From contig JAWLBL010000023.1 of the NCBI GenBank assembly GCA_041687695.1, positions 51,937 through 115,936 on the forward strand: a DNA stretch of 64,000 nt, in the 5' to 3' direction. This stretch comes from Myxococcota bacterium. Its GTDB lineage: Bacteria; Myxococcota_A; UBA9042; PHBI01; JAWLBL01. The stretch's first letter is position 1. Every line of letters starts with the position of its first letter. Position numbers and translations under genes: made by a program. This document shows, in pieces, positions 2,386 to 60,596 of the stretch. The notes under the pieces are model-generated. The model was not told the origin of the DNA. It searched no databases and was given only the letters and a program-made list of their open reading frames with translations.

Positions 2386-3806
2386 CGGGGGCCCCCGCGC
2401 AGGGCCTGAGCGACGGCGCGGCGGCGGGCGAGCAGGTCGCGGGCCTGGGCGAGGTCGGCGGCGGCGTCAGGGTCGGGTGAGGTCAGGTCGGCCGGGTCGA
2501 GGGCGTCGATGGGGACGTGACGGGCCAGATCGAGGGCGTGCTCGGCGGCGGCGAAGGCGCGCGGGCTATGGAGGTCGCGGCGCAGGCGGGCGCGGAACAG
2601 GTGGGTGAGGGCCGGACTCCAGGGGCCGGGCAGGTCGACCAGCGGCCAGGCGGCGGGGATGTCGTCGAGGGGGCCGAGGTTGCGCGTGAGCAGCTCGAGG
2701 ACGAGGGCGTCGCCCTTGGCGGGGCCGATGAGGCGCGTCAGGGCGGCGACCGTGGGGCGGGTGAGGGCGACCTTGTCCCAGTCCTGGGCGCCGTCGAGGG
2801 CTCCGCGGAGGAGGGCGGCGGCGAAGGGGCGGTCGCGGTGGCGCAGGGCGGCGCGGGCCAGGGGCTGCGCCAGGGCGGCGTGGTCGGTGGCGAGGAGATC
2901 GGAGACGAAGCGCTCGGGCGGGCAGCGCAGGGCGCGGGTCAGGGCCGAGGGCGGGGCCAGGGCCAGCATCTGGGCCAGCCAGCCGGCGCGCGGGCCGAAG
3001 ACGTCGGTCTCGGGGGAGCGCTCGGTCAGGCCGTCGCGGCGGGCGGCGTCGTCGAGGGCGTCGGGGAGGGTCACCTCGAGGTAGTGCAGCCCCTCGTGGT
3101 GGACGGCGAAGCAGACGGCGACGCGGGCGGCCATGCGGGCCGACAGGGCCGAGCCGGGCAGGGTGGCCAGGAGGTCGGCGGCGGCCTGGCGGACTTCTTT
3201 GCGGCGGTCGTCGAGGGCGGCTTCGAGCAGGGGCTCGTCGGCGCGGGTGGGGCCAGCGCGGCGCAGGGCGTCGAGGGTGGCCAGGCGCTCGGGGAGCGGA
3301 GCGGCGGTGAAGGTGGCGAGATCAGCGGGCGCGGGTGGAGGCGGCGGGGCGGCGAAGGCGAAGGCCGGGTGGCGGGCGGCGAGCCAGGGGCCGAGGGGGC
3401 CGACGGCGCGGAGGGCGGCGGGCTGCAGCGCCGGGTGGCGGCGGGCGAGGTCGAGCAGGGCGGGGGCCAGGGCGGCTGGCGGGCGGACGGCGGCGGCCTG
3501 GGCGGCGGCGAGCCACTCGGCGACCAGGGCGTGCTCGCGGGCGCGGGTCAGGGCGGCCAGCAGGGCGGCGGCGTCGGGGGCGCAGACGGGGCGCGGGTCG
3601 GGGGCGGCGGCCGGGGGCGGTGGGGGTGCGGGGGAGGGGACGCGACCGGCCTGGGCGTGGAGGGCGGCGGCGCCGGCGGCCAGGAGCAGGCGCCACTCGG
3701 GGGTGTGGGCGGCGAGGGGCGGCGCGAGCGGCGGGAAGGCGTCGGCGGGCGGGGCGCGGCGGTCGGTGCCCAGGACGGCGGCGGTGAGCAGGGCGTCGCC
3801 GGTCAT
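2382..3806 (-). CDS. DUF5691-domain protein
   Basis: 474 aa from ATG 3806 (MTGDALLTAAVLGTDRR); LEAALDDRRKEVRQAAADLL motif; ATGA overlaps on both sides. Confidence 0.75.
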   Translation of the reverse strand: MTGDALLTAAVLGTDRRAPPADAFPPLAPPLAAHTPEWRLLLAAGAAALHAQAGRVPSPAPPPPPAAAPDPRPVCAPDAAALLAALTRAREHALVAEWLAAAQAAAVRPPAALAPALLDLARRHPALQPAALRAVGPLGPWLAARHPAFAFAAPPPPPAPADLATFTAAPLPERLATLDALRRAGPTRADEPLLEAALDDRRKEVRQAAADLLATLPGSALSARMAARVAVCFAVHHEGLHYLEVTLPDALDDAARRDGLTERSPETDVFGPRAGWLAQMLALAPPSALTRALRCPPERFVSDLLATDHAALAQPLARAALRHRDRPFAAALLRGALDGAQDWDKVALTRPTVAALTRLIGPAKGDALVLELLTRNLGPLDDIPAAWPLVDLPGPWSPALTHLFRARLRRDLHSPRAFAAAEHALDLARHVPIDALDPADLTSPDPDAAADLAQARDLLARRRAVAQALRGGPR

Positions 3807-8506: not shown

Positions 8507-8715
8507 GCGGGTCCCCCTACCGTCACGTCTGTGTCCCCGCGGCCACCGGCGCCTCGCCGGCGGCCGTATTCGGCCTGTGCACACAGCCTAGAGGACGCCC
8601 CGCGCCGCCACAAGCGCGTCGACGACGGCGGGTCCGACGCGGCTTTGAATGAATGCGCTGCGCCGCCGTGCGTCAGGGGGCCCGCTTCCGGAACCGCCGT
8701 CCGCTCGAGGCTCCC

Positions 8716-10197
8716 ATGACCGCTCTACCGCTCGCGCTCGCCTGCGGTGTCGTCTTCACCGTGTTCGCCACCCCGGCCGTGCGGGCCCAGGGCTCGCCCG
8801 AGCCCGTGGCCTCGCGCTCGGCGCGCCTCGACGGCGCCGCGCTGGTCGTGGGCGTCGAGCGGCTGCGCGCCCCGGCCCCGCCGGCCCGTCACGCGCGGAC
8901 CGACGCCCAGGTGATGGCCCGGGTGGCCACGCGAACGCTGGGGTTGCCGGAGCCGCGGGTGCGTCTGCTGACCGACGAGCGGGCCGGCGCCCGCGACCTC
9001 GAGGACGGCCTCGCCTGGCTCGCCACCAACGCCAGCCAGGACGGCAGCGTGTGGGTCTACTTCTCCGGCCACGGCGCCGTCCTGGATGACGGCTCGGCCG
9101 CGCTGGTGCCCTGGGACGCCGACCCGCTCGCTCCCGCGCAACGGGCCCTCCCGCTGTCCAAGGTCGTCGACGCGCTGGCCGCGATGCCCGGCCGCGAGAA
9201 GGTCCTGCTGGTCGACGCCTGCTTCACGGCCGGCGGCCCGCGCGCGCTCTTCCCCGAAGGGGCGCGGCCGCTGCTCCCCGTCGCGCCGCTCTCGGCCTAC
9301 GAGCGCGCCGGTGTGGTGGTCCTCGCCGCCTCGGGCCGAGACGGGCTCGCCGGAGCCTCCGCCCGCGGCCCGCACGGCCGCTTCACCTGGCACCTGATGG
9401 TGGGGCTGCGCGGCGCGGCGGACCAGGACGCCGACGGCGTCGTCACCTTCGCCGAGCTGGCCAGCTTCGTGACCCGCGCCGTCTCCGCCGAGGCGCGACT
9501 CGCCGGCCAAACCCAGCGCCCCTGGAGCACCTTGGCGGACCTGGGCGACCGCCCCGTCGTCATCGAACCGGGGCTCGGGGACCGGGTCGAGTCCGCTCAC
9601 GTCGTCGCGCCCGCGCCGCCCCCGACCGTCGCCCTTGGCCCCGAGCCAGCCTCGGTCCTGGCCAGCGAGTCCGCGCCGCCTCCGCAGGCCGTCGCCCTTG
9701 GCCCCGACCCAGACCTCGCCCCCGCACCCGCGTCAGCCGATTGGCAGTGGGGGCTGGAGACCGCCATGGCCTTCCGCGGCGCCGACCCGAACCACGTCGG
9801 TGACGACTCGCTGCTGGGCATCGCCCGCCTGGCCTTTCGCGAAGGCGCGGTCGGCCCGTTCACCTTCTGGCTCGAGGGCGCGCTCGGCGCCGGCAACCTC
9901 GACCGAGACCCGCTCCCCGACGGCGAGCCGCGAGAGGACACCTTCACGTTCTGGCTCCACGCCCTGCAATCGGTGCGCTACCCGCTCTGGACCCGCAGCG
10001 CCCCCTCCGGCTGGCTCCCCGACGACCTCGCCTCGATCGACCTCGGCCTCGGCGGCTTCGCCTCCGGCCCCGACGCCGGCCTCCTCCTCCGCGCCAACGT
10101 CAACCTGCTCTGGCTCACCTTCGGCGCCGCCTACGCCTACGGCGACATCATCGGCGGCAGCTGGACCGCCTCGGGAGGCGTGCGCTTTTCCCTCTGA
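8716..10197 (+). CDS. Secreted caspase-family (peptidase C14) protein with C-terminal beta-barrel-like region
   Basis: Signal peptide; YFSGHG (His) and LVDAC (Cys) dyad; DQDADGVVTFAEL EF-hand-like loop; Pro-rich linker; amphipathic strands ending GVRFSL. Confidence 0.8.
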   Translation: MTALPLALACGVVFTVFATPAVRAQGSPEPVASRSARLDGAALVVGVERLRAPAPPARHARTDAQVMARVATRTLGLPEPRVRLLTDERAGARDLEDGLAWLATNASQDGSVWVYFSGHGAVLDDGSAALVPWDADPLAPAQRALPLSKVVDALAAMPGREKVLLVDACFTAGGPRALFPEGARPLLPVAPLSAYERAGVVVLAASGRDGLAGASARGPHGRFTWHLMVGLRGAADQDADGVVTFAELASFVTRAVSAEARLAGQTQRPWSTLADLGDRPVVIEPGLGDRVESAHVVAPAPPPTVALGPEPASVLASESAPPPQAVALGPDPDLAPAPASADWQWGLETAMAFRGADPNHVGDDSLLGIARLAFREGAVGPFTFWLEGALGAGNLDRDPLPDGEPREDTFTFWLHALQSVRYPLWTRSAPSGWLPDDLASIDLGLGGFASGPDAGLLLRANVNLLWLTFGAAYAYGDIIGGSWTASGGVRFSL

Positions 10198-13076: not shown

Positions 13077-14702
13077 ATGCGCACCGCGCTCTCGTTGACC
13101 CTCTTGCTCGTCTTCGCGGTCGAGCTCGCCGGCGGGGGCTTGCGGTTCTCGGCTCCCGAGCCGCCCGATCCGCACGTCTTCGTGACCTCGGACCAGTGCA
13201 TGGCCTGCCACAACGGGCTCACGACCCCGGCCGGCGAGGACGTGTCGATCGGCTTCGACTGGCGCGGGTCCATCATGGCCCACTCGTCGCGCGACCCCTA
13301 CTGGCACGCGGCCGTGCGGCGCGAGGTCATCGACCACCCGGCCGCCGCCGAGGAGATCGAGGACGAGTGCTCGGCCTGTCACATGCCGATGGCCAACAAG
13401 ACGGCCCGCCTCGCCGGCGCGCGGGGCGAGGTCTTCGCGCACCTGCCCATCCGCGCGGCCGAGACCCGCGACGCGCTCCTGGCCGCCGACGGGGTCTCCT
13501 GCTCGGTGTGCCATCAGATCCAGCCCTACAACTTCGGGCAGAGAGCCAGCTTCAACGGCCGCTTCATCGTCTCCGACCCCGACGTGGGCGAGGCGCGTCC
13601 GATCTTCGGACCCTACGACGTGCAGCCCGGGCTGGTGACCGTGATGCACTCGGCGACCGGCTTTCAGCCGAGGCCGGCGACGCACATACAACAATCGGAG
13701 CTGTGCGCGACCTGCCACACCCTCTACACCCACACGCTGGGCCCGCGGGGCGAGGTCGTGGCCGAGCTGCCCGAGCAGGTCCCCTACCTCGAGTGGCTGC
13801 ACAGCGATTATCGCGAGACGCGGAGCTGCCAGAGCTGTCACATGCCGGTGGTCCGGGACCCGACGCCCATCAGCAGCGTGCTGGGCGAGCCGCGGCGGGA
13901 GGTGTCGCGGCACACCTTCGTCGGGGCCAACTTCTTCATGTTGGGCATGCTGAACCGCTACCGAGAGGACCTGGGCGTCGAGGCGCTGCCCCAGGAGCTG
14001 GACACGGCGCGCCAGCGGACCATCGAGCACTTGCAGACGCACAGCGCGAGGCTGGCCGTCGAGGCCGGCGTCGTGCGCGACGGGTGGCTCGAAGCCGACG
14101 TCGTGGTGACCAACCTGGCCGGCCACAAGCTGCCGACCGCCTACCCGTCGCGCCGCGCCTGGCTGCACGTCGTGGTGCGCGACGCGTCGGGCGCCGTGCG
14201 CTTCGAATCCGGTCGCTTCGCCCCGAGCGGGGCCATCGTCGGCAACGACAACGACCTCGACCCACGCGCCTTCGAGCCGCATCACCTGGTCATCGACGAC
14301 CCCGCGCAGGTCCAGATCTATGAAGGCATCATGGCCTCGCCGTCCGGCCACGTCACCACGGGGCTGCTGACGGCCAGCCACTTCATCAAGGACAACCGCC
14401 TGTTGCCACACGGCTTCGACAAGGCGACGGCCCCCGCCGACGTCGCGGTGAAGGGGCGGGCCGCCCAGGACCCGGACTTCCTGGCCGGCGGGGACCGGAC
14501 CCGCTATCGGGTCGACGTCCGCGGGGCGTCCGGGCCTTTCCACGTCACCGCCGCGCTCTGGTACCAGCCCATCGCCTACCGCTGGGCCGAGAACCTGCGT
14601 CCCTACGAGGCCCCCGAGACCGACCGCTTCACGCGCTACTTCGACGCCATGGCCGCCGACTCCGCCGTCATCGTCGTCACGACCGAGGCCGCCATCGAGT
14701 AG
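13077..14702 (+). CDS. Pentaheme c-type cytochrome
   Basis: Five CxxCH motifs (CMACH, CSACH, CSVCH, CATCH, CQSCH); GHKLPT motif; signal peptide; GAGGAGG RBS. Confidence 0.9.
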   Translation: MRTALSLTLLLVFAVELAGGGLRFSAPEPPDPHVFVTSDQCMACHNGLTTPAGEDVSIGFDWRGSIMAHSSRDPYWHAAVRREVIDHPAAAEEIEDECSACHMPMANKTARLAGARGEVFAHLPIRAAETRDALLAADGVSCSVCHQIQPYNFGQRASFNGRFIVSDPDVGEARPIFGPYDVQPGLVTVMHSATGFQPRPATHIQQSELCATCHTLYTHTLGPRGEVVAELPEQVPYLEWLHSDYRETRSCQSCHMPVVRDPTPISSVLGEPRREVSRHTFVGANFFMLGMLNRYREDLGVEALPQELDTARQRTIEHLQTHSARLAVEAGVVRDGWLEADVVVTNLAGHKLPTAYPSRRAWLHVVVRDASGAVRFESGRFAPSGAIVGNDNDLDPRAFEPHHLVIDDPAQVQIYEGIMASPSGHVTTGLLTASHFIKDNRLLPHGFDKATAPADVAVKGRAAQDPDFLAGGDRTRYRVDVRGASGPFHVTAALWYQPIAYRWAENLRPYEAPETDRFTRYFDAMAADSAVIVVTTEAAIE

Positions 14703-15545: not shown

Positions 15546-19850
<4,305 letters not shown>

Positions 19851-24083: not shown

Positions 24084-24347
24084 ATGAGAACGCGACGGAC
24101 ACGGGCACGCGCGGCTGGCGCTGCGCCGAGGGCCGCCGTGCTGGCTGGCGCCTTGGCGAGGGCCGCCGTGCTGGCTGGCGCCTTGGCGAGGGCCGCCGTG
24201 CTGGCTGGCGCGGCGTCGGCTTCGGCCGGCTGCGCGCTGCTGCCCCAGACGTCCACCGAGCTGAACATCGCGTTGGCCATCACCGGCGTGCTGATCGTCG
24301 GGGCCGTCGTCGCGGCGCTGGTCGTGACGTTCAGAGGCAAGAAATGA
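24084..24347 (+). CDS. Small membrane protein/lipoprotein
   Basis: 87 aa; SAGC lipobox-like; C-terminal TM segment followed by RGKK. Confidence 0.5.
   Translation: MRTRRTRARAAGAAPRAAVLAGALARAAVLAGALARAAVLAGAASASAGCALLPQTSTELNIALAITGVLIVGAVVAALVVTFRGKK
24127..24211 (+). repeat. 30-bp perfect tandem repeat, about 2.8 copies
   Basis: CGAGGGCCGCCGTGCTGGCTGGCGCCTTGG at 24127, 24157 and partial at 24187. Confidence 0.9.
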
Positions 24348-24457: not shown

Positions 24458-27400
24458 ATGGGTCTGCCCGAAGAGAAGCAGCAGAAGGTCAACGCCAACG
24501 ACCTGGATCCGCAGCAGCGTCCGACCGACGGTCCGGGCGCGGCGGACACCAAGCAGGCCAAGGAGCCTGGTCTGGCGGACCTGGCGGCGCAGGTGCTCAG
24601 CGGCGAGATCACGCTGGGCGAGGCGGTGGGACAGATCCCCGCGCTCGTCAGCTTCCTGCAGGCCACGCTGGGCAACGAGATGGTCGCCAAGCTGCTCGAG
24701 GGCGGCGAGGAGGGCGAAAAGAAGAAGCGCCCCGGCGACGAGGAGGCCAAGGAGCAGTCCGAGACGGAGTCCGAGGAGGACGCGTCGGAGGGCGGCGGCG
24801 ACAAGGCGGCCGAGACGGACGGTCAGGCGAAGTCGCCCAACGTCGGGGGGCGTCAGGCGTTGACCGTGCTCGCGGGCGGCGCGGCGGCGGGCGCGGCGGC
24901 GGCCACGGCCAACGCGGCGGGGGCGAACCCGGACGCGCAGGCCGAGCTCGGCGACAAGCTGAAGGCCAAGGAGGACAAGGCCAAGGCGAAGACCGAGGCC
25001 AAGAAGAAGCCGGTGCGTAAGGCGCGCAAGGCCAAGGCGCAGGACCCGATCGCGTCGCCGCCGACCACCGCCGGGGGCGGCGAGGTGACGACGGCGAAGC
25101 CGCAGGCGCCGGGGAACGAGGAGAACGAGGCGCGCGAGCTCGAGGACGAGACCAAGGACACGACCGACAAGGCGAAGTCGAACGGCGGCGAGGAGAAGAA
25201 GGTCGGCGAGGAGGTCCAGCGGACGGCCAAGGAGCAGGGCAAGGGTGAGCTGAAGGCCGGCCCGGCGACGCCCGCGCAGCAGACGCCGCAGACCGACGAC
25301 AAGGCCGACCCGAACAAGCCGGCCGACCCGGCGACCGACGGGCCGATGCCGTCGGACGAGCAGGTCCTGCAGGAGGTGAACGGCAAGCAGGACGACAAGG
25401 GCAGCGGCGTCCAGGAGGAGGCGAAGAAGACCGAGGACAAGGCCGGCGGCGCGGGCGGCGGCGAGGTGGTGCCGGACGGGCCGGGCGGGCAGGTGCCCGG
25501 GGCGCCGGGGCCGGACGCGGCGACCGAGGGCAAGGAAGACAAGGAGGGCGAGGGCGGGGGAGGCGGCGAGACCGTGCCGGCGGCGCCCGTGGGCGAGGGC
25601 GGCGAGGGCGAGGTGGCGGCGGTGCCCGAGGGGCCCGGCGGGACGCTCGACGAGTACATGGCGGCCAACCCGGACACGGCGGCGGCCGAGTCGGTGGCCA
25701 GCCAGAAGATGGTGACCGACAAGATCGGGCGGAACACGAACGAGCTCCACGGCAAGATCGACCTGCCGCCCGACAAGAGCTGGCTGGACGCGGTGACCCC
25801 GCGGCAGGAGTGGTTCAAGCTCACGCAGGCGGTCAAGGGCAACAAGTGGTCGGGTCAGGACGGCGCCCTGGCCTTCATGACCAACCTGAACTCGATCGTC
25901 GACTTCATCTCGGGCGCGGCCGGCAAGATCGGCCTGGCGGCGACCATCGGCGGGGCCATCCTGACGCTGCTGGTGCCGCCGGTCGGGGCGTTCCTGCTGG
26001 CGGTCGGGCGCGTGATGAACGCGGTGAGCCTGGCCTGCGCGGCGGTGAGGGCGATCTCGAGCATCGTCACGACGGTGATGCTGGCGGTGAAGGCGGCCAA
26101 GGAGAAGGATCCCGCCAAGCGGCTCGAGATGATGCAGGAGATGAAGGCCAACGTGCAGGCCGGCGTGATGGCGGGCATCGAGATCGTGATGTCCAAGATC
26201 GGCGGCGGCGCCAAGGGCGGCGCGGCCAAGGCCGGCGGCAAGGGGATGAACGCGGCCAAGGCGACGTGGAAGGAGGCCGGGGGCCTGAAGGGGGCCATGA
26301 AGCAGGGCTTCAAGGAGGGCGGCGTCAAGGGCGCGCTGAAGGCCGGCGGCGGGCTGGTCAAGGACACGGTGAAGGCCGGGGCCGGCGCGGCCAAGGACGG
26401 GCTGAAGCAGTCGTGGAAGGAGGGCGTGCAGGGGCTGAAGAACACGGCGGCCAGCATGAAGCAGCTGGGCGTCGGGGGGACGCTCAAGCACGGCCTGAAC
26501 ACGGCCGGCGGCGCGCTGAAGGACAAGTTCATCAAGCCGCTGGCGGACCTGCCGACCGCGTTCAAGGAGTTCAAGGGCAGCTGGAAGACGCTCAAGACCG
26601 ACTGGTCGTCGTTCAAGGGGGCCGTCAAGAGCGACGGGTACTTCTCGACCATCAAGTCGATGAACTTCCCGAACTACGGCAAGGAGGGGCTGAAGGGGCT
26701 GAAGAAGGACCTCCTGGACACGACCGGCGGCGGGTACGCGTCGCGGGTGCACATGGGGATGAACGGGGCGCCCAAGAAGGAGGAGAGCAAGCTCCCGGGC
26801 GGGCCGAAGGACGACCGGACGGATCTGCAGCGGTCCATCGACAAGCAGAAGGCGGATCTGGCCAAGCTGGAGAAGGCCAAGAGCGGGTCGCGGGCCGACA
26901 AGATCAAGGCGCTCAACGGCGACGACATGGGCGGGGCGCAGAAGGCGCTGTACGACAAGGGCAAGGCCGACGGGGACCTGTCGACGCGGCTCGGGGCGTA
27001 CAAGAACCGCAAGGGGAGCGAGCTGGACGACGGGTCGCTCGACGTGCTGCTCGACACGAAGATCGCGCAGACCAAGGCGTCGCAGAACCTGCTCATGCCC
27101 AAGAGCAACGGCTCGGCGGCCATGGACTTGGCCAAGTCCGGGTATGACCTGGCGACCGGCAAGGGGGACTTCGGGGATCTGGCGAAGACCGGGCTGAGCC
27201 ACATGGGGGTGGGCGGGTCGACCGCGTCGAAGTTCATGGTGAACGACGAGACCTCGGCGCAGAAGTCGGCGAAGAAGAAGTCGCTCCTGAAGAAGCTGCA
27301 GGAGGACAACGACGCGCGGACGAAGAAGGCGGCCGCGTCGGTCGTGAGCGACGTGCAGGGGGCGCCGCAGTACGGGGTGACGCAGGGCAAGGTGCAGGCG

Positions 27401-29107
27401 ACGATGTCGCCGGTGCTGGGGCTGTTCCAAGAGCGGACGACGCAGCTGCAGGAGGCGATGAGCGCCACGCCGGGTGGCAAGGCGACCGACACCAGCACGG
27501 ACCAGGGTGGGGACGCGCAGGCGAGCGCGCTGCCGCCGCCGCCGCCAGCGCCGCCCGAGGGGATGACGGTGCCGGACGCCGGGCTGCTGGCGGACATATC
27601 GGGGCAGCGCAAGGCGCTGTCGGGCTACAAGACCAGGGTGCAGGCGGACATCGCGCAGGCCCAGGTCTACAAGGAGCAGGCCATCGGCGGGGACGCCAAG
27701 CTGGCCGAGTACGCGGCGGGGCTGGACACGCAGTCGGCGGAGATCGCCAAGGAGAACGAGGCCGCCAAGAAGGACACGGCGGACATCGCCAAGAGCAAGG
27801 AGGATCTGGCCACGGGCGGCAAGGAGATCGCCGCGGGGGCGCAGAAGGCCGAGGGCGAGAAGGGCAAGACGGAGGCCGAGTCGAACAAGGGCTCGGGGCT
27901 GAGCGTGCAGCCCGACGAGGCGAAGAAGCGGGCCGAGGAGGAGAAGGACGCGCGCAAGCGCGAGGCGGACTTCCAGCGCGAGTACAAGAACGCCGGGTAC
28001 CTGCGCAAGAAGTACCTGAAGGCCAAGAAGTGGCTGTTCTCGTTCGCCAATCTGCTCAAGAAGGCGGCCGAGTGGGTCTGGAAGAAGATGATCGCGCCCG
28101 CCATCAAGGCGGTGAAGGCGGCGCTCGGCAAGGTGATGAACTTCATCACCAACATGATGATGTCGGGGATCCTCAAGCTGGTGAAGCTGTTCCTGAGCAA
28201 GGAGGAGGCGAACCGGCTCGACGAGACCTTCGCGCAGATGAAGGAGCTCGAGGCCAAGCAGGCCGAGGCGGCGACCCAGGAGACGGCGGACAAGAACGCC
28301 GAGGCGAAGAAGCAGCTGGGGGACGCGCGGCAGGCGGCGGCGACGAAGATCGAGACGTGCCAGAAGAACGTGGACGAAGGCAACGCGCTCATCGCGGCCA
28401 TCGACGCGCACGACAAGACGCTGGCGGGCGAGTACGCGAAGGTCGACGGGGCGCGCAAGGCGTTCATCGCGCAGTACACGCCGTACTTCGACTGGGTGAA
28501 GCTGCGGGACTCGCAGCCGCCGGCCGAGGACAAGGCCGGTGGTGGCGGTGGCGGCAAGGAGAGCGAGGGCGGCGAGAAGCAGCCGCACCCGGCGGACCGG
28601 CCGCTGAGCCCGGCCGTGGGGGAGGCGCTGAGCGCGGCCTGCGGCATCGTCAAGGAGGACAGCCTGGCGGCCGAGAAGGAGATCGCCGGCAAGTCGGCCG
28701 AGCAGCGCGACAAGGTGCACAAGTCGGCGTGGGGCGTGTACGACGAGAACCGGCGCGACATCGCGGTGGCGGCGGTCGGCGTGCTGGCGCCGTCGGTGGA
28801 CGCGGTGACGCCGCTGTACGACCACGAGCAGGGGCGGGTGAAGGCGGTGCAGAACGCGGCGGACGCGGTGCACGCCAACGTGACGGGGGCCATCGCGTCG
28901 TCCGAGTCGGCGCGGCGCGGGCGGCTCGAGGGGCTGGCCGGAGAGGCGGCGACGCTGTCGACGATGGCGGCGACGAACGGGGCGGCGAAGGCGCGCGACC
29001 TGTACCAGAAGCTGGCGGCCGAGGCGAAGGGCATCGACGAGGCGCGCAGCAAGGCCTACGAGGCCATGAGCGAGGGCTACGCGCGGGCGGCGAAGAGCGG
29101 GGCGTAA
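24458..29107 (+). CDS. Large Lys/Ala/Gly-rich effector- or tape-measure-like protein
   Basis: 1549 aa, strongly gene-like codon use; N-terminal LQATLGNEMVAKLL; acidic disordered region; long hydrophobic hairpin; amphipathic and coiled-coil C-terminal half. Confidence 0.8.
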   Translation: MGLPEEKQQKVNANDLDPQQRPTDGPGAADTKQAKEPGLADLAAQVLSGEITLGEAVGQIPALVSFLQATLGNEMVAKLLEGGEEGEKKKRPGDEEAKEQSETESEEDASEGGGDKAAETDGQAKSPNVGGRQALTVLAGGAAAGAAAATANAAGANPDAQAELGDKLKAKEDKAKAKTEAKKKPVRKARKAKAQDPIASPPTTAGGGEVTTAKPQAPGNEENEARELEDETKDTTDKAKSNGGEEKKVGEEVQRTAKEQGKGELKAGPATPAQQTPQTDDKADPNKPADPATDGPMPSDEQVLQEVNGKQDDKGSGVQEEAKKTEDKAGGAGGGEVVPDGPGGQVPGAPGPDAATEGKEDKEGEGGGGGETVPAAPVGEGGEGEVAAVPEGPGGTLDEYMAANPDTAAAESVASQKMVTDKIGRNTNELHGKIDLPPDKSWLDAVTPRQEWFKLTQAVKGNKWSGQDGALAFMTNLNSIVDFISGAAGKIGLAATIGGAILTLLVPPVGAFLLAVGRVMNAVSLACAAVRAISSIVTTVMLAVKAAKEKDPAKRLEMMQEMKANVQAGVMAGIEIVMSKIGGGAKGGAAKAGGKGMNAAKATWKEAGGLKGAMKQGFKEGGVKGALKAGGGLVKDTVKAGAGAAKDGLKQSWKEGVQGLKNTAASMKQLGVGGTLKHGLNTAGGALKDKFIKPLADLPTAFKEFKGSWKTLKTDWSSFKGAVKSDGYFSTIKSMNFPNYGKEGLKGLKKDLLDTTGGGYASRVHMGMNGAPKKEESKLPGGPKDDRTDLQRSIDKQKADLAKLEKAKSGSRADKIKALNGDDMGGAQKALYDKGKADGDLSTRLGAYKNRKGSELDDGSLDVLLDTKIAQTKASQNLLMPKSNGSAAMDLAKSGYDLATGKGDFGDLAKTGLSHMGVGGSTASKFMVNDETSAQKSAKKKSLLKKLQEDNDARTKKAAASVVSDVQGAPQYGVTQGKVQATMSPVLGLFQERTTQLQEAMSATPGGKATDTSTDQGGDAQASALPPPPPAPPEGMTVPDAGLLADISGQRKALSGYKTRVQADIAQAQVYKEQAIGGDAKLAEYAAGLDTQSAEIAKENEAAKKDTADIAKSKEDLATGGKEIAAGAQKAEGEKGKTEAESNKGSGLSVQPDEAKKRAEEEKDARKREADFQREYKNAGYLRKKYLKAKKWLFSFANLLKKAAEWVWKKMIAPAIKAVKAALGKVMNFITNMMMSGILKLVKLFLSKEEANRLDETFAQMKELEAKQAEAATQETADKNAEAKKQLGDARQAAATKIETCQKNVDEGNALIAAIDAHDKTLAGEYAKVDGARKAFIAQYTPYFDWVKLRDSQPPAEDKAGGGGGGKESEGGEKQPHPADRPLSPAVGEALSAACGIVKEDSLAAEKEIAGKSAEQRDKVHKSAWGVYDENRRDIAVAAVGVLAPSVDAVTPLYDHEQGRVKAVQNAADAVHANVTGAIASSESARRGRLEGLAGEAATLSTMAATNGAAKARDLYQKLAAEAKGIDEARSKAYEAMSEGYARAAKSGA

Positions 29108-29191
29108 ACGACGGCGGCCCGGGGTGCGGAGGATGGTCGTGGGGCCGGCCGGCTGGAAGAGGCTGTCGCAATGACGCCGCCGATGGCGGCC

Positions 29192-29310
29192 TTGGAGTGC
29201 TCCGGCTTGCCGGAGCCCCGGCCCCGGCGGCGTGCCGCCGGGAGCTGGCCGCCAGACCCGGCGCAGCAAGCTGCGCCGGATGGGGGCTCCACCAAGGTGG
29301 AGCACTCCAA
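29192..29310. repeat. Inverted REP pair with internal hairpins (REPIN/BIME-like) between convergent genes
   Basis: TTGGAGTGCTCCGGCTTGCCGGAGCC at 29192; reverse copy TTGGAGTGCTCCACCTTGGTGGAGCC ending 29310; two further hairpins between them. Confidence 0.7.
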
Positions 29311-29399
29311 TTGGCCTTCTGCGACACCCTCTGGAAGGCGGCGGTCCCAGGGCGGCCGATGCGGGCTCTGGTCGTAAGGCCTACCGGGATGGACGCGCG

Positions 29400-31430
29400 T
29401 CAGTCGCCTCGTAGAGGGGCGGTCGCCAGGACGTAGAGCATCGTCAGCAGGGCCTCTTGCTGCGGGCCGTCGAAGGTGGCGCGGGTCGTGATGGTGGGGA
29501 GCCACGGATCGAGGGCGGCGGTCTGGTCGGCGGTGTCGAACAGGACCGTCAGGCCCTGGGCGGCGGCGGCGCAGCGGTCGGGGGCGCCTTCGCCGCACTC
29601 GGTGGCGAGCGGCTCGACCACCAGGTCGACCGTGCCGATGGCGCCCAGGGCGACGGTGAAGGCGTCGCGGTGGGTCGGGTCGCTCATGCGCTCGCGCACG
29701 GCGCGCAGGGTCAGGGCGAGCCCCCGGTCACCGCGGGCCAGCCAGCCGGCGGCGCCGGCCGCGTAGGCGGCCATCGCGGGGCGGGAGACGTCGCCGATGA
29801 AGGGCAGCAGGGCCTTCATGAGGCCGGCCGAGACCTCGGGGGTCAGCGGCGGGGCCAGGTAGAAGGGGCCCAGCTCGTGGGACTGGTGGGCCGACTCGGC
29901 CACCTCGAGCAGGGCCTGCAGGGTGGCGACCTTGATGGGCTCTTCGTCGCCGACCTGCTGCCAGACATGCTCGAGGCCCGCCATCAAGCCGGGCGAGCGG
30001 CGCAGACCGTAGGCCAGACCGGGGCCGATGGCCTCGGCAGGGGCGCCGTCGGCGATGAGGCCCAGCGCGAGGGCGGCGGCGTTGGGGTCCTCGGTGCCGA
30101 GGTGCAGCGCCGCGCCGACGGCGGCGACGCGCACGCCGGCGTCCTGGCTGTCGAACTGGCGCTCGAGCGCGTTCATGACCGTCTCGCGGCTGGCGGCGGC
30201 GACGCGCGGGTGGACGGCCAGGGCCGCGGCGGCGCCCAGGCGCAGGGCCGGGTCGACCGGGGCGACGACCAGGCGCGCCAGCAGGTGTGCGGTCAGCTCG
30301 GGGCAGGAGCGCCAGTGGGCGATGGCGGCGCAGGCCGAGCGCGCCGCGGCGACGACCTGCGGCTCGGCCTTGGCCTCGAGCACCTGTTGGAAGGCGGTGT
30401 GGATGGGGCCGATGGCGCTGGCCATGGGCTCGACCAGGCCCTCGAGGGCGCTGAGGGCGGCCGGGTCGTCCTGGGCGGCGGCCTGGCGGGCGGCGAACAG
30501 GAGCAGATCGTTCTTGCGCTCGCCCGGTGGCAGCAGCTGGCCGATGGCGCGGCCGACCCGGTCGGCGTAGGCGGCGCCCAGCTGGTCGAAGAGCGGCTCG
30601 AGCAGCTCGGGGTCGCCCTCGGCCGCCGCGATGATGACCGTCAGATCGGTCTCGAGCGTCGCGAGGAGCAGCGGGTGGCCGGCCAGCTCCTCGTCGTTGA
30701 GCGCGTCGCGCGTGGCCCGGTAGCGCTCCATCGCGCCCTCGAGCGTGTCGTCGGCGAAGGGGCCGTCCCAGGCCTCGGCGGCCATCAGGGCCGTGCCGGC
30801 GCGGCGCAGCCAGCGCTTGGCGGTGGGCTGGGTCCAGGCGATGCTGCGCTGCAGCAAATCGGCGCGCACGTCGGCGTCCGCGGGGGCGCCCCAGGCCATC
30901 GCGGTGGCGGCAAGGGCGGCGCCCAGCTCGAGCTGCTCCTCGTAGGGGCCGGGGCGCTCGAGGTACAGCCGGACGAGGCCGGCGCCCTGCTCGTCGTGGG
31001 TGATGGCGGCCGCCATGGCGAACACGTCGAAGAGCGACCCGTTCATGCGGTGGTCCATCAGCCCGTCGGCGTCCCCGGTGTCGGCCACCCGCCGAGCGGC
31101 CAGCCACTGGAACACGTCCACGTCCAGCGGCCGCACCAGCTCCCCGCCGGCCGGCGCCGGCACCAGGAGGCCGACCTGCACCGCGAGCTCGGTGAAGGCG
31201 GTCGCCTCGGGCCAGGTCCACTTGTCGGCGACGAGCCGCGCGAGGTCCTGCGTGCTGCCGACCCAGCGCGCCAGCGGCCGCCGCGCCAGCGCCAGCGCGA
31301 GGTCGCCCAGCCCGTCCATCAGCGTCGCCTGGATGCTCTCCTTGACCTTGAGCACGCGCGTCGCGGCCGCCTCGGCCAGCCAGTCGCGGTAGCGCGCCGA
31401 CGGCAGGATGGACATGGATCCGGTCTTCAT
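29400..31430 (-). CDS. Helical-repeat (HEAT-like) protein with NACHT-associated winged-helix-like N-terminus, no NTPase
   Basis: 676 aa; LGDLALAL...GLLV...VFQWLAARRV; HEAT-like DPALRLGAAAAL and DAGVRVAAVGAAL; ATGA overlap with the ATPase. Confidence 0.65.
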   Translation of the reverse strand: MKTGSMSILPSARYRDWLAEAAATRVLKVKESIQATLMDGLGDLALALARRPLARWVGSTQDLARLVADKWTWPEATAFTELAVQVGLLVPAPAGGELVRPLDVDVFQWLAARRVADTGDADGLMDHRMNGSLFDVFAMAAAITHDEQGAGLVRLYLERPGPYEEQLELGAALAATAMAWGAPADADVRADLLQRSIAWTQPTAKRWLRRAGTALMAAEAWDGPFADDTLEGAMERYRATRDALNDEELAGHPLLLATLETDLTVIIAAAEGDPELLEPLFDQLGAAYADRVGRAIGQLLPPGERKNDLLLFAARQAAAQDDPAALSALEGLVEPMASAIGPIHTAFQQVLEAKAEPQVVAAARSACAAIAHWRSCPELTAHLLARLVVAPVDPALRLGAAAALAVHPRVAAASRETVMNALERQFDSQDAGVRVAAVGAALHLGTEDPNAAALALGLIADGAPAEAIGPGLAYGLRRSPGLMAGLEHVWQQVGDEEPIKVATLQALLEVAESAHQSHELGPFYLAPPLTPEVSAGLMKALLPFIGDVSRPAMAAYAAGAAGWLARGDRGLALTLRAVRERMSDPTHRDAFTVALGAIGTVDLVVEPLATECGEGAPDRCAAAAQGLTVLFDTADQTAALDPWLPTITTRATFDGPQQEALLTMLYVLATAPLRGD

Positions 31431-33568
31431 TTCACGGCCTCCAGCTCGTCGATGTCGTCGGTGACGCGCACGATCTTACCCAGCTTCTCGCACTCGAGGC
31501 GCGCCGCGCGCCGCAGATCGCGCATCGTGATGCCGCCCTCGCGTTCGGCCGCGAAGAAGGCCGCGCGCACGGCCGCGTTCTTGATGTGGCCGCCGGACAG
31601 GTCGTAGTCGAACGCCATGATCTCGAAGTTCAGCGGCTCGTCCGTGCGCGCCTTGTCGGGGACCATCCGCTGCCACAGCTCGGTGCGCGTGTCGAGGTCC
31701 GGCGCCGGGAAGCTGACGCGGAACTTGATGCGCCGCCGGAAGGCGTCGTCCAGGCTGCCCTCGAGGTTGGTCGTCAGGATGGTGACGCCGTCGTAGTCCT
31801 CCATGCGCTGCAGGAGGTAGTTGACCTCGAGGTTCGCGTAGCGATCGATGCTGCTCTGCACACTCGTGCGCTTGGCGAACAGGCTGTCGGCCTCGTCGAA
31901 CAGCAGCACCGACTGGCTCTTGCTGGCCTCGTCGAAGATGCGCCCCAGGTTCTTCTCCGTCTCGCCGATGTACTTGGACACCGTGCGGGACAGGTCGACC
32001 CGGAAGACCTCCATCCCCAGCTCGCCGGCCACGATGCCGGCGGCCATCGTCTTGCCCGTGCCCGGCGGCCCCGCGAACAGCGCCGACAGCCCGCGCCCAT
32101 AGGGCAGCAGACGCCCGTAGCCCCAGTCGTCGAACACGACGCGCCGGTTCTTCCAGAAGGCGACGATCTCCTGCAGCGCCTCGCGCGACTCGCGCGGCAG
32201 GATGAGGTCCTCCCACGTGAAGGTCGTCACGATGCGCGTCGCGATGCCAGACAGCCGCGGCGTCAGCTGCGCGCGGCACGCCTCGGTCACGTCGCCCAGC
32301 TGCACCGGGCGCGGCTCGTCGGCGCTGCGCGTCCGCGCCACCGCCGCCTGCACCGCCCGCGCGATGGCCCCGCCCGACAGCGGGTAGCGCACCGCCCCCT
32401 CGAGCACCACCGGGTTGACGTTGCGGATGTTGAACCCGGCGAACCCGCCTCGCCACAGCTTGACCCGCTCGCGCTTGCTGGGCAGCGGCAGGTGGTGCAC
32501 GACCGCCTGGTCCAACAGGCTCACGAACCACGACGCCTGGTCCCGCGCCGTCACGACCACCCCGTGCGGGTGCTCGTCCAGCAGCTGCGCCAGCCGCCGG
32601 TACGGCCCGCCGACCAGTTGGTCGCTGGCCTCGGCGTCGGCCAGGTCGACCACCAGCGGCACCCGCAGCAGCCGCGCGTCCCGCCGCAGCACCTCCATGC
32701 GCCGCTCGGCCCCGGCCAGCGGCTGCACCAGCGCCGCCGCGTCCACCTCGAGCACCCGCCCCAGGTGCTGCCGCGCCAGCGTCGTCTTTCCGGTCCCCGC
32801 CGGCCCGATCAGCACCACCGCCGTCGCGACCTCGTCCCGCCCCAGCCGCTCCAAGCTCGCCGCGATGGGCGCCGCCACCTCGGCGGCCATCACCAGCGGC
32901 TTGTTCCCCTCCCTGGGCGCCGCCAGACGCGCGCACATCGCCAGCGCCGGGTCCAGGTCCTCGCCCCCGATGCACCACGCCGCCACGCTGGGCGCCAGCC
33001 GCACCTCGCGCGCCAGGAACGGCTCGGTCGGCGTCTCGCCGTCACCCAGCTCGATCAGCCGCCGCGCGATGAGCGCCGAGTCCCGAAAGAACGCCGGCGC
33101 GTTCACCAGCCGCCCCATCGCGCTCGGCTGCAGGAGCCCCAGCAGGAACTCCATGGTCGGCCAACGCCGGCTCAGGTCGTTCCACGCGTACATGTACAGG
33201 CGCCGGATCGACTCGTCGACCTCGCCCGCCAGCGCCAGCACCAGCAGCTGCCGCGACAGATCGTCCAGTTCGAACGCCTCGATGAGCCGAAACAGCGGCA
33301 TTGGCCGACCCGCGCGCTCGCTCGCCACCAGCCGGTCGTCGATGCGCTGCCGCACCAGATCCGCCTCGCCAGGGCCGCGCGGCCGCTGCGCCTCGTCCAC
33401 CAGCAGCCGGGATGCCTCCTCGCCGCTCATCGCGAACGCGCGCACCAGCCCCTTCGCGTCCGGGTCGGGCAGCCGGTCCGTCGCCGCCAGAAAGCCCCGC
33501 ACGACCGCGCGCGCCCACGCGATCTCGTCCAGGATGTGCTCGGCCGGGTGCTCGTACGCCGTCGTCAT
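31427..33568 (-). CDS. AAA+ ATPase, Afp15/Pvc15 (eCIS-type) family
   Basis: 713 aa from ATG 33568; N-terminal LLVLALAGEVD...YAWND...PT region; degenerate first AAA (GPAGTGKT); second AAA with GPPGTGKT, VSKYIGETEKNL, LLFDEAD, DRYANLEVNYLLQRME, DDAFRRR. Confidence 0.85.
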   Translation of the reverse strand: MTTAYEHPAEHILDEIAWARAVVRGFLAATDRLPDPDAKGLVRAFAMSGEEASRLLVDEAQRPRGPGEADLVRQRIDDRLVASERAGRPMPLFRLIEAFELDDLSRQLLVLALAGEVDESIRRLYMYAWNDLSRRWPTMEFLLGLLQPSAMGRLVNAPAFFRDSALIARRLIELGDGETPTEPFLAREVRLAPSVAAWCIGGEDLDPALAMCARLAAPREGNKPLVMAAEVAAPIAASLERLGRDEVATAVVLIGPAGTGKTTLARQHLGRVLEVDAAALVQPLAGAERRMEVLRRDARLLRVPLVVDLADAEASDQLVGGPYRRLAQLLDEHPHGVVVTARDQASWFVSLLDQAVVHHLPLPSKRERVKLWRGGFAGFNIRNVNPVVLEGAVRYPLSGGAIARAVQAAVARTRSADEPRPVQLGDVTEACRAQLTPRLSGIATRIVTTFTWEDLILPRESREALQEIVAFWKNRRVVFDDWGYGRLLPYGRGLSALFAGPPGTGKTMAAGIVAGELGMEVFRVDLSRTVSKYIGETEKNLGRIFDEASKSQSVLLFDEADSLFAKRTSVQSSIDRYANLEVNYLLQRMEDYDGVTILTTNLEGSLDDAFRRRIKFRVSFPAPDLDTRTELWQRMVPDKARTDEPLNFEIMAFDYDLSGGHIKNAAVRAAFFAAEREGGITMRDLRRAARLECEKLGKIVRVTDDIDELEAVK

Positions 33569-34668
33569 ACGCCCTGCTCGGCCTGAGCCGCCGCATACTT
33601 CGCCAGCGCCACGTCGTCCTCGACCAGCCGCCGGAACGCCAGCCGCAGCAGCCCGATCCGGCTCGCCCGCTCGCCCGCGTCCAGCGCGTCCGCCACGACC
33701 AGCAGCCCGCGCGCCGTCTCCTCGTCCCCCCGCGCCCACGCGCAGTCGGCCGTCAGCGCGTTCAGCCGCGCCACCCGCTCGCGCACCCCGGCCTGCCCCA
33801 GCCATCGGTCCGCGTGCCGGTCCGCCAGCGCATACAGCGCCTCGCGCCCCGGCGCCTCGCCGCCGACCTGCATCATCCCGACGGCCTCGCTCACCACCGC
33901 CTCGATGACCCGCCCCGGCGGCACGTGCGGCCCCGCCCCCGGCGCGTTGATGAGCCCCTCGGTCGCCTCCAGCGCCGCCGCCTCGGGCCGCCCGCCGCGC
34001 CACTGCAGCCCACGCCGCGCCGACGCCCGCTCGGGGTCCCCCCCGGCCGCCGCCGCCGCCTCACGCCACAGCACCACGTCCGTCCACTCCTGCGGGAAGC
34101 GCCCGCCGCCGCGCCGCACCTCGTCCGCCAGCCCGTCCAGCAGCCGCGCCGCGAGGTCCAGCCCGCACAAAAACGGCAGCCCCGGCGTGTCGCTCGCCGC
34201 CAGCCCCGCCACCAGCTTGCTCAGCCGCGCCGTCGACGTCGGCGGCAGCCGCTCGATGACCTGCAGCTCCGCCTGCTCCTCGGTCCGCACCTCGACCGCG
34301 TGCGCCGTGGGCAGCGACCCCAGGATGAACCACATCCGCCCATAGGTCCCCGGCGGCAGCGTCAACGCCGCCCGCTCGAGATCGGTGGCCGCCTCGGGCA
34401 TCGGCACCACCGCCCGCCGCCCGGAGCCCGTCCGCGGCACGCCCGCCGACTCCAGCTTGTAGGCCGCCTTGCGCGCCGCCTTGCGCACCGCGCGCGCGAG
34501 ATCGCTGTCACCCAGCGCCTCCAGGTGGTCTCGCCGCCGCTCGCTCAGCAGCCGGTCCACCAGCGCCAGCAGCTCGGCCTCCGCGACCCCCCGCAGCGCC
34601 CGTGCCGCCTCGACGCTGGCCTCACCCGCCACGAACCGCCCGACCGCCGACTCCACCACCTCGCTCAT
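33565..34668 (-). CDS. Hypothetical protein
   Basis: 367 aa; VRKAARKAAYKLESAGV helix; ATGA overlaps on both sides. Confidence 0.7.
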   Translation of the reverse strand: MSEVVESAVGRFVAGEASVEAARALRGVAEAELLALVDRLLSERRRDHLEALGDSDLARAVRKAARKAAYKLESAGVPRTGSGRRAVVPMPEAATDLERAALTLPPGTYGRMWFILGSLPTAHAVEVRTEEQAELQVIERLPPTSTARLSKLVAGLAASDTPGLPFLCGLDLAARLLDGLADEVRRGGGRFPQEWTDVVLWREAAAAAGGDPERASARRGLQWRGGRPEAAALEATEGLINAPGAGPHVPPGRVIEAVVSEAVGMMQVGGEAPGREALYALADRHADRWLGQAGVRERVARLNALTADCAWARGDEETARGLLVVADALDAGERASRIGLLRLAFRRLVEDDVALAKYAAAQAEQGV

Positions 34669-35078
34669 CCCTCCGCTCCCGGCTCCGGCGGCGCGAACAG
34701 GTCCCCCAGCAGCTCCGACAGGTCCACCTTCACCGGCGCCCCCGGCGGCCGCGCCACCTCGGCCCCGCCCGCCGGCTCGTCCCGCACGATCGCTGCCGCG
34801 ATGCCCTGCAGCATATGCATCAGCAGCGGCCCGCCGTGCCGCTGCAGGAACGCCCCGTCCACCTTCAGGTCGCCCCCCTCCGCCGGCATCAGCGCGTTGG
34901 CCTCGAGGTACCCGGTGAACAGCCGCATCACCTCGGCCTCGACCTCGGCGTCCGCCTCGCCCGGCGCGGGCAGCACCCCCGCCAGCCCGTACTGCGCGTC
35001 GATCTCGCGCAGCGCCTTGGCCAGCCCCTCGTCGATGGCCTGCCCCAGCTCGGCCAGCCCGGCCTCGTCCGCTTCCAT
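34665..35078 (-). CDS. Hypothetical acidic protein
   Basis: 137 aa from ATG 35078 with GGAGGGG RBS; ATGA overlap with the downstream gene. Confidence 0.65.
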   Translation of the reverse strand: MEADEAGLAELGQAIDEGLAKALREIDAQYGLAGVLPAPGEADAEVEAEVMRLFTGYLEANALMPAEGGDLKVDGAFLQRHGGPLLMHMLQGIAAAIVRDEPAGGAEVARPPGAPVKVDLSELLGDLFAPPEPGAEG

Positions 35079-35189: not shown

Positions 35190-39638
<4,449 letters not shown>

Positions 39639-59027: not shown

Positions 59028-60596
59028 TCAGAGCTCGAACGACAGGCCCAGCTCGAGTCCAGCGTCCCACAGCGGCGCGAGCTCACCGCCGCGCCGCGCG
59101 AAGATGGCCTCCCCCCCCACCGTCGCCTCGAGCGACAGGGTGGCCGCGACGGGGATCCGCAGCGTCACCTCGCCGGACGGGCCGGCGCCCCACGCCACGT
59201 GCTCGCCGTCGAGATCGTAGCCGGCGTCGCCGAGGCGGTCGGCGTCGACGTGGCGCAGCCGCTGCACGATGCGGCGGACCGACGCCGCGACGCCCAGCTC
59301 GAGCTCGAAGGGGCCCAGCGCCAAGAGCCGCGCGAGCCGCGCCTCGCCGCCGAGCCAGCGCTCCTCGACGTCGTGGATGGCAGTCGCGTGATTCGCGCCG
59401 CCCAGCTGCAGGCCCGCGCCCAGGCGCCAGGCGCCCTGCAGGTAGCCATAGCGGAGCCGCGCGCGCGCGCCCAGGGCCTGTGACGTCCCGACGGCCCCGG
59501 CGCGGGCCCCGAGGAGGTGTCGCCGCAGCCGCAGCCCGCCGCCCTTGGCCACCAGAAGCGCCAGCGGCACCGGCGTGAAGGCGTTGGCGCCGAGCGCCTC
59601 GTGGCCTCCGTAGGGCACCGAGACCTCGACCGCGCCCGCGTCGCGCTCGGCGCGGCGGTGGACCAGCAGGCGCCCGGAGGGGACGGCGAGGCGCGTCGTC
59701 GCGTCGGGCAGGGCAGCGACCTCGGCGACGACGTTGCCCGAGGGCAGGTGGAACACCAGGTAGCGGACGTCGCGGCCGGCGGGCAGCGTCAGGCTGGCGC
59801 GCGCGCGGGACAGCCGCGTCAGGACGAGGGGGCCGGCGCCTTCGACGTGGGCTCGGAGCGCTGGGTGCTGCGTGGCGCCCGGCGCACCCAGCGAGCGTCG
59901 CAGCGTGCGTCCGTAGGCGTAGGCGTAGGCCTCGTCGAAGGTCACGCGGCCGTCGCGGTCGTGGTCGCCCGCGCCGCGCATCGCCGCGGCCATGTAGTGC
60001 GAGAAGATGGCCCCGCCGAGCTCGTCGGACTCCTGGGCGGCCTCTCCGGCCGACGACGAGCGCAGGACCAGGGCCCCGGCCGGGCCGGGCGGCGCGTCGA
60101 GGCGCACGTCGAAGGGCTCGACCTCGGCGAAGCCTTTGGGCCGCCCGGCGCCCGTGCGGCAGGCGTCCAGGATGACCAGGCGCAGGCCGGCCGAGACCCG
60201 GGCGGCGGCCCGCTCGAGCTCGGCGACCGGCAGGCGCTGCCCCGACAGGTGCAGGTGCGCCTCGTCGCCGTGGCCGCTGAAGTAGACGATGAGGGTGACG
60301 TCCTCGGGCGCGCGGCCGCGGGCGAGGCGGGCGGCCCGGTCGAAGGCCTTCAGCAGGGCGTCGGCCGAGCGGTTCTCGAGGACGATGGCGTGCTCGGGGG
60401 CGACGTCGCCGAGATCGGTGAAGACCGAGGCGATGCGGCGGGCGTCGGCGGCCGCGTGACGCAGGGGCAGCTCGTCGGCCAGGCCGACGTCGTTGCCGGC
60501 GGCGACCAGCACGCGGAGCGGCGCGGCGAGGGCGGCGGCGGGCAAGAGGACGAGCGCGGAGAGCGCCGCCGCCAGGGCGAGGCGCCAGGGCCTCAT
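59028..60596 (-). CDS. Secreted caspase-family (peptidase C14) protein with C-terminal beta-barrel-like region
   Basis: 522 aa from ATG 60596; signal peptide; YFSGHG, ILDAC, AQESDELGG, DHDRDGRVTFDEA; ends LGLSFEL. Confidence 0.85.
   Translation of the reverse strand: MRPWRLALAAALSALVLLPAAALAAPLRVLVAAGNDVGLADELPLRHAAADARRIASVFTDLGDVAPEHAIVLENRSADALLKAFDRAARLARGRAPEDVTLIVYFSGHGDEAHLHLSGQRLPVAELERAAARVSAGLRLVILDACRTGAGRPKGFAEVEPFDVRLDAPPGPAGALVLRSSSAGEAAQESDELGGAIFSHYMAAAMRGAGDHDRDGRVTFDEAYAYAYGRTLRRSLGAPGATQHPALRAHVEGAGPLVLTRLSRARASLTLPAGRDVRYLVFHLPSGNVVAEVAALPDATTRLAVPSGRLLVHRRAERDAGAVEVSVPYGGHEALGANAFTPVPLALLVAKGGGLRLRRHLLGARAGAVGTSQALGARARLRYGYLQGAWRLGAGLQLGGANHATAIHDVEERWLGGEARLARLLALGPFELELGVAASVRRIVQRLRHVDADRLGDAGYDLDGEHVAWGAGPSGEVTLRIPVAATLSLEATVGGEAIFARRGGELAPLWDAGLELGLSFEL

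Follow-up and report, generated by a model that had tools for sequence, protein, structure and literature searches.

A putative loader-cargo cassette in a Myxococcota genome, probably a satellite of a distant, ATPase-free contractile injection locus

What does an Afp15/Pvc15-family ATPase, a component of extracellular contractile injection systems (eCIS), serve when no tail gene lies near it? The question is raised by a 64-kb window (the whole 64,000-nucleotide stretch of DNA analyzed here) of a Myxococcota bacterium, G000:C23:51937-115936, where G000 is the source genome and C23 its contig; below, C numbers are contigs of G000, other G numbers are relatives, L numbers are examined loci, and P numbers are cluster-representative proteins. 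The ATPase gene belongs to a four-gene operon (in order, g1, g2, the ATPase gene, and g4) that converges on a giant gene. The original prediction weighed two explanations: a stand-alone satellite of loader and cargo for an eCIS encoded elsewhere, or an undescribed system reusing eCIS parts. The first is favored by the clade in which the ATPase falls, its recurrent pairing with the giant gene, an ATPase-less eCIS locus on contig C17, and relatives of the giant protein that resemble DUF4157 cargo; the second is less likely. We therefore consider it probable that the cassette is a satellite loader-cargo unit serving the distant eCIS of C17.

Pfam analysis of the ATPase revealed an N-domain of the PF22977 WHD family (aa 2-210; E 1.8e-27) and an AAA domain (aa 497-621). 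Further inspection showed that D1 has a Walker A and a degenerate Walker B in which the glutamate is missing, and that D2 is complete, with Walker A, a DEAD Walker B, a KY pore loop, sensor-1 Asn, and Arg fingers. The two motifs quoted for it earlier are both present, VSKYIGETEKNL at aa 530 and DRYANLEVNYLLQRME at aa 575. In a tree of D2 (35 rows, with a small outgroup of four other AAA proteins), the window ATPase was placed within a 31-row clade that holds the plasmid eCIS ATPases of pADAP, Serratia, Nostoc, and Streptomyces, and the four other AAA proteins were set apart on long branches (87/96). We take the pADAP Afp-locus ATPase to be Afp15 by its position, from a presumed gene order. Its earlier assignment to the Afp15/Pvc15 type is thus borne out by the phylogeny, which groups its D2 with those of ATPases from eCIS loci and apart from other AAA families. 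Six orthologues of the window ATPase formed a clade (98/99), and its sister group (92/86) comprised three ATPases encoded directly upstream of giant-gene homologues. Three G000 ATPases that adjoin DUF4157 giants formed a separate clade (95/87).

The same combination of an N-domain, a degenerate D1, and an active D2 with DEAD Walker B and KY pore loop is described for Pvc15 (PMC11495950; this and the other papers cited were available in part, and statements drawn from them are limited to those parts). Alg15 is required for cargo loading and dispensable for assembly, and loading requires a disordered cargo N terminus, DUF4157 being dispensable (10.64898/2026.05.27.728243). Pvc15 behaves like Alg15 in loading (PMC9054023), and both recognize the cargo by a disordered sequence at its N terminus, unfold it, and pass it into the tube (PMC9054023, 10.64898/2026.05.27.728243). 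Of the two roles that had been put forward for Afp15/Pvc15 proteins, cargo loading stands, and assembly does not need them according to the Alg15 work (10.64898/2026.05.27.728243). Like these proteins, the window ATPase is encoded next to a cargo with a hydrophilic, low-complexity N terminus, and by analogy it may thread unfolded cargo into tubes. Afp15, Pvc15, and Alg15 are, however, described as encoded inside the structural locus (PMC11495950, PMC9054023, 10.64898/2026.05.27.728243), whereas the structural locus of G000 has no such gene and about nine paralogues lie outside it, several of them beside one giant cargo-like gene.

In the window, no tail, baseplate, or spike family was found by Pfam in 36 of the 37 called genes (the 37th runs off the window), and contig C23 was without a match when the whole genome was searched for sheath, tube, Pvc16, and DUF4157. 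The predicted lack of sheath, tube, baseplate, and spike genes in the 64 kb therefore holds. The description of the module as an orphan is accurate for the window and for C23 but not for the genome, where structural families are present on other contigs. The check for sheath and tube loci elsewhere located an eCIS locus on C17. It holds an ECF-type sigma gene and Pvc16, then two sheath-tube pairs with a tail-chaperone-like gene between them, and then a 1656-aa low-complexity gene, CIS-tube/LysM, gp25, baseplate J, a P2-I-like gene, and two FHA genes. The shell genes (cap, two sheaths, two tubes, and baseplate) are thereby all in one place. The 1656-aa low-complexity gene (L115:13201-18171), between the second tube and CIS-tube/LysM, had no PHROG match; the two FHA genes close the locus. 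No Afp15-like ATPase was matched on C17 (best E, 0.36). Nine copies scoring at least 192 bits are present in G000, the window copy included, and remnants of the ATPase N-domain lie on C36, C38, and C6. Loaders and cargo genes are dispersed over the genome, several of them as neighboring pairs, as in this cassette. If cargo enters the C17 shell in this way, its loaders must be distant ATPases, since the locus encodes none itself. Pvc16 was single copy in 17 of 21 genomes, with one match each.

The distance between shell and ATPases is not an artefact of assembly, since the same split is seen in the single-contig genome G006, where the cap and tubes lie at 0.73 Mb and seven ATPase sites at 1.65-8.54 Mb, the nearest of them 0.9 Mb from the shell genes; contig breakage was accordingly rejected as its cause. 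That genome also has 28 DUF4157 matches. Two other delivery routes were rejected: the sheath on C9 is part of a prophage with terminase and capsid genes, and the type VI secretion system has no TssC sheath match in the 99%-complete G000. The prophage (L117; G000:C9:155001-175000) carries terminase, capsid, and contractile tail genes. Lone tube (gp19) genes were seen among unrelated genes on C27 and C8 (L130:6708-7142 and L131:8052-8711), and G006 has a lone tube at 2.0 Mb.

In G000, 18 DUF4157 matches were obtained, none of them on C17 or C23. Four of the 18 domains lie 0.3-1.2 kb from an ATPase or a remnant, with about 0.07 expected by a rough estimate. On C36 (L127:7473-10759) a DUF4157 gene is directly preceded by the broken remnant of an ATPase N-domain, the two making up a decayed cassette, and the ATPase on C6 follows a 2290-aa gene of no named family. 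The N termini of the 18 proteins form groups of eight, four, and two, plus four singletons, and from their sequences these classes fit a possible address code, as candidate loader address classes. The group of eight shares a short Y-x-x-Q-type motif, the group of four a longer helical domain, and the group of two is a third type. Of the 61 relatives, 55 contain PF22977, with as many as 15 matches in a genome.

Turning to the cassette itself, the joining of four genes by three ATGA overlaps and their convergence on a 1549-aa gene, as originally predicted, were confirmed in the list of open reading frames (ORFs), and a gap of 292 bp separates operon from giant gene (Table 1). All five genes were called by a dicodon model trained on their own genome, with the g4 start five codons later, and the model prefers them to the shadow ORFs, of which this high-GC sequence has many. 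Pfam and NCBIfam gave no match for g1, g2, g4, or the giant protein, and a scan for promoters and terminators yielded nothing exceeding chance.

Table 1. Coordinates of the cassette genes and of the conserved parts of the giant protein in the window
Feature	Position	Strand	Description	Basis
g1	34665..35078	-	137 aa, acidic protein	ORF list
g2	33565..34668	-	367 aa, alpha/beta protein of a Myxococcota family	
Afp15/Pvc15-family AAA+ ATPase	31427..33568	-	713 aa	Pfam, D2 tree, motifs
g4	29400..31430	-	676 aa, predicted winged-helix and helical domains, then HEAT-like repeats	AlphaFold2, structure comparison
Giant gene, putative eCIS cargo	24458..29107	+	1549 aa, no Pfam family, no DUF4157	
Conserved N-terminal block of giant protein, aa 34-84	24557..24709	+	ends in LQxxxGNxxV	Alignment
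Family-defining hairpin domain of giant protein, aa 396-590	25643..26227	+	hydrophobic helical hairpin at aa 488-537	
Second conserved region of giant protein, aa 1035-1348	27560..28501	+	coiled-coil-like, with amphipathic W-rich segment	

The ATPase and g4 genes also converge on a giant gene in five relatives (G006, G016, G013, G022, and G004) and in the metagenome locus L108. In G014 and L110, g4 faces the giant gene before the contig ends, and in G007 the ATPase-g4 pair lies at a contig end and the giant gene was not found at E<=1e-5. The cassette-bearing genomes span families f1, f3, f5, f6, and f11 in two orders. Only in G000, G006, G013, and G016 does the operon begin with g1 and g2. Of the five genes, the ATPase, g4, and the giant gene recur together, and g1 and g2 accompany them in those four genomes only; the conserved unit is one of three genes. 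Neither outcome named beforehand as refuting the prediction, an ATPase outside the eCIS clade or an operon and giant gene that never occur together, was seen. g4 was found in 12 of the 61 relatives and in 12 of 107 genomes of the class, and stand-alone copies of g2 occur across family f3. In six of the eight loci that span the junction, the ATPase and g4 are separated by a gene of 165-207 aa, whose product has two hydrophobic helices and matches bacterial PH weakly; it was not found anywhere in G000. This membrane PH gene was also seen about 8 kb upstream of the ATPase-cargo pair at L085:1810-2253 (G023) and L087:6432-6929 (G049).

These neighborhoods bear on whether the cassette could instead be a fragment of the tail of a broken-up or horizontally acquired eCIS operon, its ATPase a generic, redundant loader travelling with a cargo gene and g1, g2, and g4 unrelated genes caught in the operon. 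At their 3' end, eCIS operons usually have an ATPase gene and then a cargo gene; copies of the ATPase have decayed on C36 and in G006; paralogues of both g2 and g4 stand alone; and the flanking genes differ in every genome. We nevertheless judge this explanation quite unlikely, for the layout is kept across four families and two orders at ATPase identities of 58-62% and cargo identities of 36-46%, the cassette copies of g2 group apart from the stand-alone copies (SH-aLRT 94), and the only g1 homologues seen are those that head this operon in three further genomes, the third of them picked up by a profile built without it (E 1.9e-18).

Analysis of the giant protein revealed, in order, a hydrophilic N terminus, a short helical motif, an acidic low-complexity linker, the hydrophobic hairpin domain, a Gly/Lys/Ala-rich middle, a poly-Pro tract, and a coiled coil with an amphipathic segment. 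Thirteen close homologues share the N-terminal helical block, a variable acidic linker, the hairpin domain, the poly-Pro tract, and the coiled-coil region. The first 35 aa rank 20th in hydrophilicity among 5339 in the genome and the first 50 aa 79th; disorder of this end was judged from composition. A hydrophilic N terminus has been reported for eCIS cargo (PMC11297309). The block at aa 34-84 aligns in 11 of the 14 family members, and the relaxed LQxxxGNxxV motif, a pattern picked after the family had been inspected, is present within the first 120 aa in 8 of the 103 matches that are more distant (mean of 0.24 and maximum of 3 in 1000 shuffles). A profile of the N terminus matched no other protein of G000. 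This conserved block with its LQxxxGNxxV motif is a candidate loading address. The motif is, we presume, common ahead of DUF4157 in other phyla.

The hairpin at aa 488-537 has 19-residue Kyte-Doolittle means of 1.7-2.1. A profile of the hairpin domain gave 110 matches among 50%-identity cluster representatives, of which P0113 looks false, as it did not match the local profile. By that local profile, DUF4157 is present in 28 of the 110 and stands ahead of the hairpin domain in 15 of the top 34; Pfam confirmed it in 15 of 36 hand-picked representatives. The coiled-coil region at aa 1035-1348 is common to the giant protein and its DUF4157-bearing relatives. Neither domain matched a Pfam or PHROG family, the hairpin domain had no meaningful match among PDB sequences, and PHROG, tape-measure families included, gave no match for the 14 family members or for two distant members. 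We would liken the hairpin domain, presumptively, to the hairpins of type III translocons. P0080 (4594 aa) and P0090 (4082 aa) contain repeated units of DUF4157, hairpin, and coiled coil, like cargo polyproteins. In two genomes, as assembled, the cargo homologue is split over two frames (L092 near 13510 and L095 near 9350), in one of them at the poly-Pro tract.

At 18 of 21 further hairpin-domain loci, several of which are closely related, the adjacent gene encodes an Afp15-like ATPase and has the same orientation, and contig ends cut the remaining three loci; 12 of the 21 carry DUF4157 in the same ORF (L105, L113, and L114 were left out of this neighbor survey). In all five distant genomes checked, several of which are related and hence not independent, the giant-gene homologue comes after an ATPase gene and shares its strand with tube genes that it follows at a distance of 23-27 kb. 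TPR genes follow the cargo homologue in L097 and L085, and in L112 a helical-repeat gene resembling them was noted by eye. At L166:5970-14817 and L167:6389-14529 (G010 and G001), a distant cargo homologue lies between two Afp15-like ATPases on the same strand.

On the basis of its DUF4157-bearing relatives and of their place beside ATPases downstream of tube genes, we regard the giant protein as a putative, DUF4157-less member of an eCIS cargo family undescribed in the literature examined. As with known DUF4157 cargo (PMC8213781, PMC11297309, PMC3482391), its relatives bear DUF4157 before the hairpin and sit at the 3' end of eCIS loci; unlike such cargo, it has no DUF4157, no DUF4157 neighbor on the contig, and no recognized toxin domain. 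Compared by description only, it also resembles Sle1 and Tme, tape-measure-related effectors of Streptomyces contractile injection systems, in being a large coiled-coil protein with a predicted transmembrane hairpin; both of those reach membranes, and Sle1, like the giant protein, lacks DUF4157 (10.1101/2025.11.06.686954, PMC11126660). They differ from it in being encoded in or beside the structural cluster; in addition, Sle1 is partnered by a DUF4157 protein, and Tme contains a nuclease domain.

The AlphaFold2 model of g4 (mean pLDDT, 93) consists in its C-terminal two thirds of HEAT-like repeats. Residues about 6-216 matched NLRP9 (Z 10.8; root mean square deviation, 3.5; 162 aligned), and the N-terminal part also matched NOD2 (Z 10.9), a chain of an NLRP2 complex (Z 10.5), and a cytoplasmic-lattice chain (Z 11.1). 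These are 4 of 50 structural-match rows, confined to the N-terminal 216-271 residues; three are titled as NOD-like receptors (NLRs), and the Z scores are borderline for helical proteins. The superposed region is the one that follows the P-loop domain in the NOD2, NLRP9, and NLRP2 structures, and helical repeats come after it in g4 as in those proteins. Unlike NLR/STAND proteins, g4 lacks both an NTPase domain and an effector domain; no Walker A was found in its sequence and no P-loop domain in its model, for which reason it is read as a STAND protein minus its NTPase. Sequence-profile tests of NLR likeness gave nothing, including <1% probability against two NACHT-like G000 proteins. There was no match among PDB sequences, no viral fold match at E<=0.001, and nothing beyond generic HEAT/ARM proteins in the Foldseek PDB search; a longer, fused form of g4 was absent from 8000 scored candidates, which is weak evidence. 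Because the sequence tests were unconfirming and Z scores of 10.5-11.1 are borderline for helical proteins, an NTPase-less STAND/NLR-like identity for g4 is kept as a lead from the model.

The structure model of g2 is confident; its best Z in the fold search was 5.6, and Foldseek gave no match at E<=0.001. Matches in the Atlas were to Myxococcota clusters with a minority Y4lR_C family, which is a lead only.

If g4 is such a protein, the cassette might have arisen from eCIS cargo genes and now be free of any syringe, with g4 an NTPase-less NLR-type sensor and the ATPase its missing motor, remodelling or releasing the giant protein into the cell's own membrane in defence or programmed death. The NLR-like subdomains without a P-loop, the place of g4 in the ATPase operon at eight junction-spanning loci (directly or across one gene), a cargo that lacks DUF4157 and faces the operon, and the two-helix membrane PH gene in six of the eight loci would all suit such a system. 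PADLOC, however, gave no match for g1, g2, g4, or the cargo and only generic AAA matches for the ATPase, of which only the AAA domain matches IetA of IetAS (NCBIfam, 107 bits against a cut-off of 510). The g4 profile results given above and the fact that Z scores near 11 fall within the range seen for helical folds also speak against it, the cargo retains a cargo-type hydrophilic N terminus and motif, and all near-complete cassette genomes retain the cap and tube locus. We consider this explanation unlikely.

Under the satellite reading, the ATPase would thread the 1549-aa protein, by way of its hydrophilic N terminus and conserved motif, into tubes that the C17 locus encodes. Once the syringe has fired, the hydrophobic hairpin and the coiled coil might insert in a membrane as a pore or anchor, much as Sle1 reaches membranes (10.1101/2025.11.06.686954). 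g4, a candidate chaperone or self-protection factor, may bind the cargo or protect the producer; in several distant relatives, TPR genes occupy the corresponding place after the cargo gene. The roles of g1, g2, and the PH membrane gene found in relatives would be accessory. That each ATPase is specific for its neighboring cargo is the least supported step, and we put it at slightly less than an even chance.

Several observations weigh against the satellite reading or parts of it. The giant gene is transcribed opposite to the ATPase, neither the giant protein nor contig C23 has a DUF4157, and Pfam found no catalytic toxin domain in the giant protein or in 36 chosen relatives. None of the 18 DUF4157 proteins of G000 has the N-terminal motif of the giant protein. 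g4 occurs without the cassette in G005, G008, G012, and G015 and on C6. In G000, 14 of the 18 DUF4157 genes have no ATPase neighbor and the ATPases on C3 and C30 no cargo-like one, so that shared loaders must exist. Proteobacterial ATPases that adjoin cargo homologues branch in a more distant clade of the D2 tree, which indicates that the cargo family does not keep to one kind of loader over long times and disfavors a fixed long-term pairing. Tube genes are present in 51 of the 61 relatives, so their co-occurrence with the cassette says little, and G014, which is 67% complete, has no tube or cap match.

Other features of the window surround the cassette. Lhr-type helicases flank it on both sides (positions 15546-19850 and 35190-39638), and a DUF5682/DUF5691 gene pair, two caspase-domain genes, and a multiheme cytochrome are encoded farther away (130-3806, 8653-10197, 59028-60596, and 13077-14702). 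By eye, three short direct repeats were noted upstream of the giant gene, at about 24120-24210, apparently within a small membrane-protein ORF.

In the parts of the literature available, including PMC12210884 and PMC12998442, there is no account of ATPase-free eCIS loci with dispersed ATPase-cargo cassettes, nor of this cargo family; the supplementary neighborhood tables of PMC3482391 and PMC8213781 could hold such pairs. That a genome can carry several PVC-type toxins had been noted (PMC3482391), and eCIS loading sequences are described as unconserved, with no recognition rule known (10.64898/2026.05.27.728243, PMC11297309, PMC9054023). Tentatively, and with less confidence than the satellite reading itself commands, we envisage one chassis with many loaders: a single ATPase-free shell, paralogous unfoldases that each read their own class of N-terminal address (at least three DUF4157 classes and the cassette motif), and an NLR-derived, NTPase-less HEAT protein that serves as gate or chaperone for payloads of a new, membrane-inserting family.

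The findings add an undescribed cargo family and possibly an NTPase-less NLR-type protein to what is known of eCIS, and most of this system would escape surveys confined to the operon or requiring a clustered ATPase. With its single shell, about nine loader paralogues, and several classes of cargo N terminus, the genome amounts to a natural swap experiment for loader specificity, and the paralogues and N-terminal classes could yield orthogonal loader-tag pairs. The layout suggests that these bacteria run one syringe with many interchangeable cassettes.

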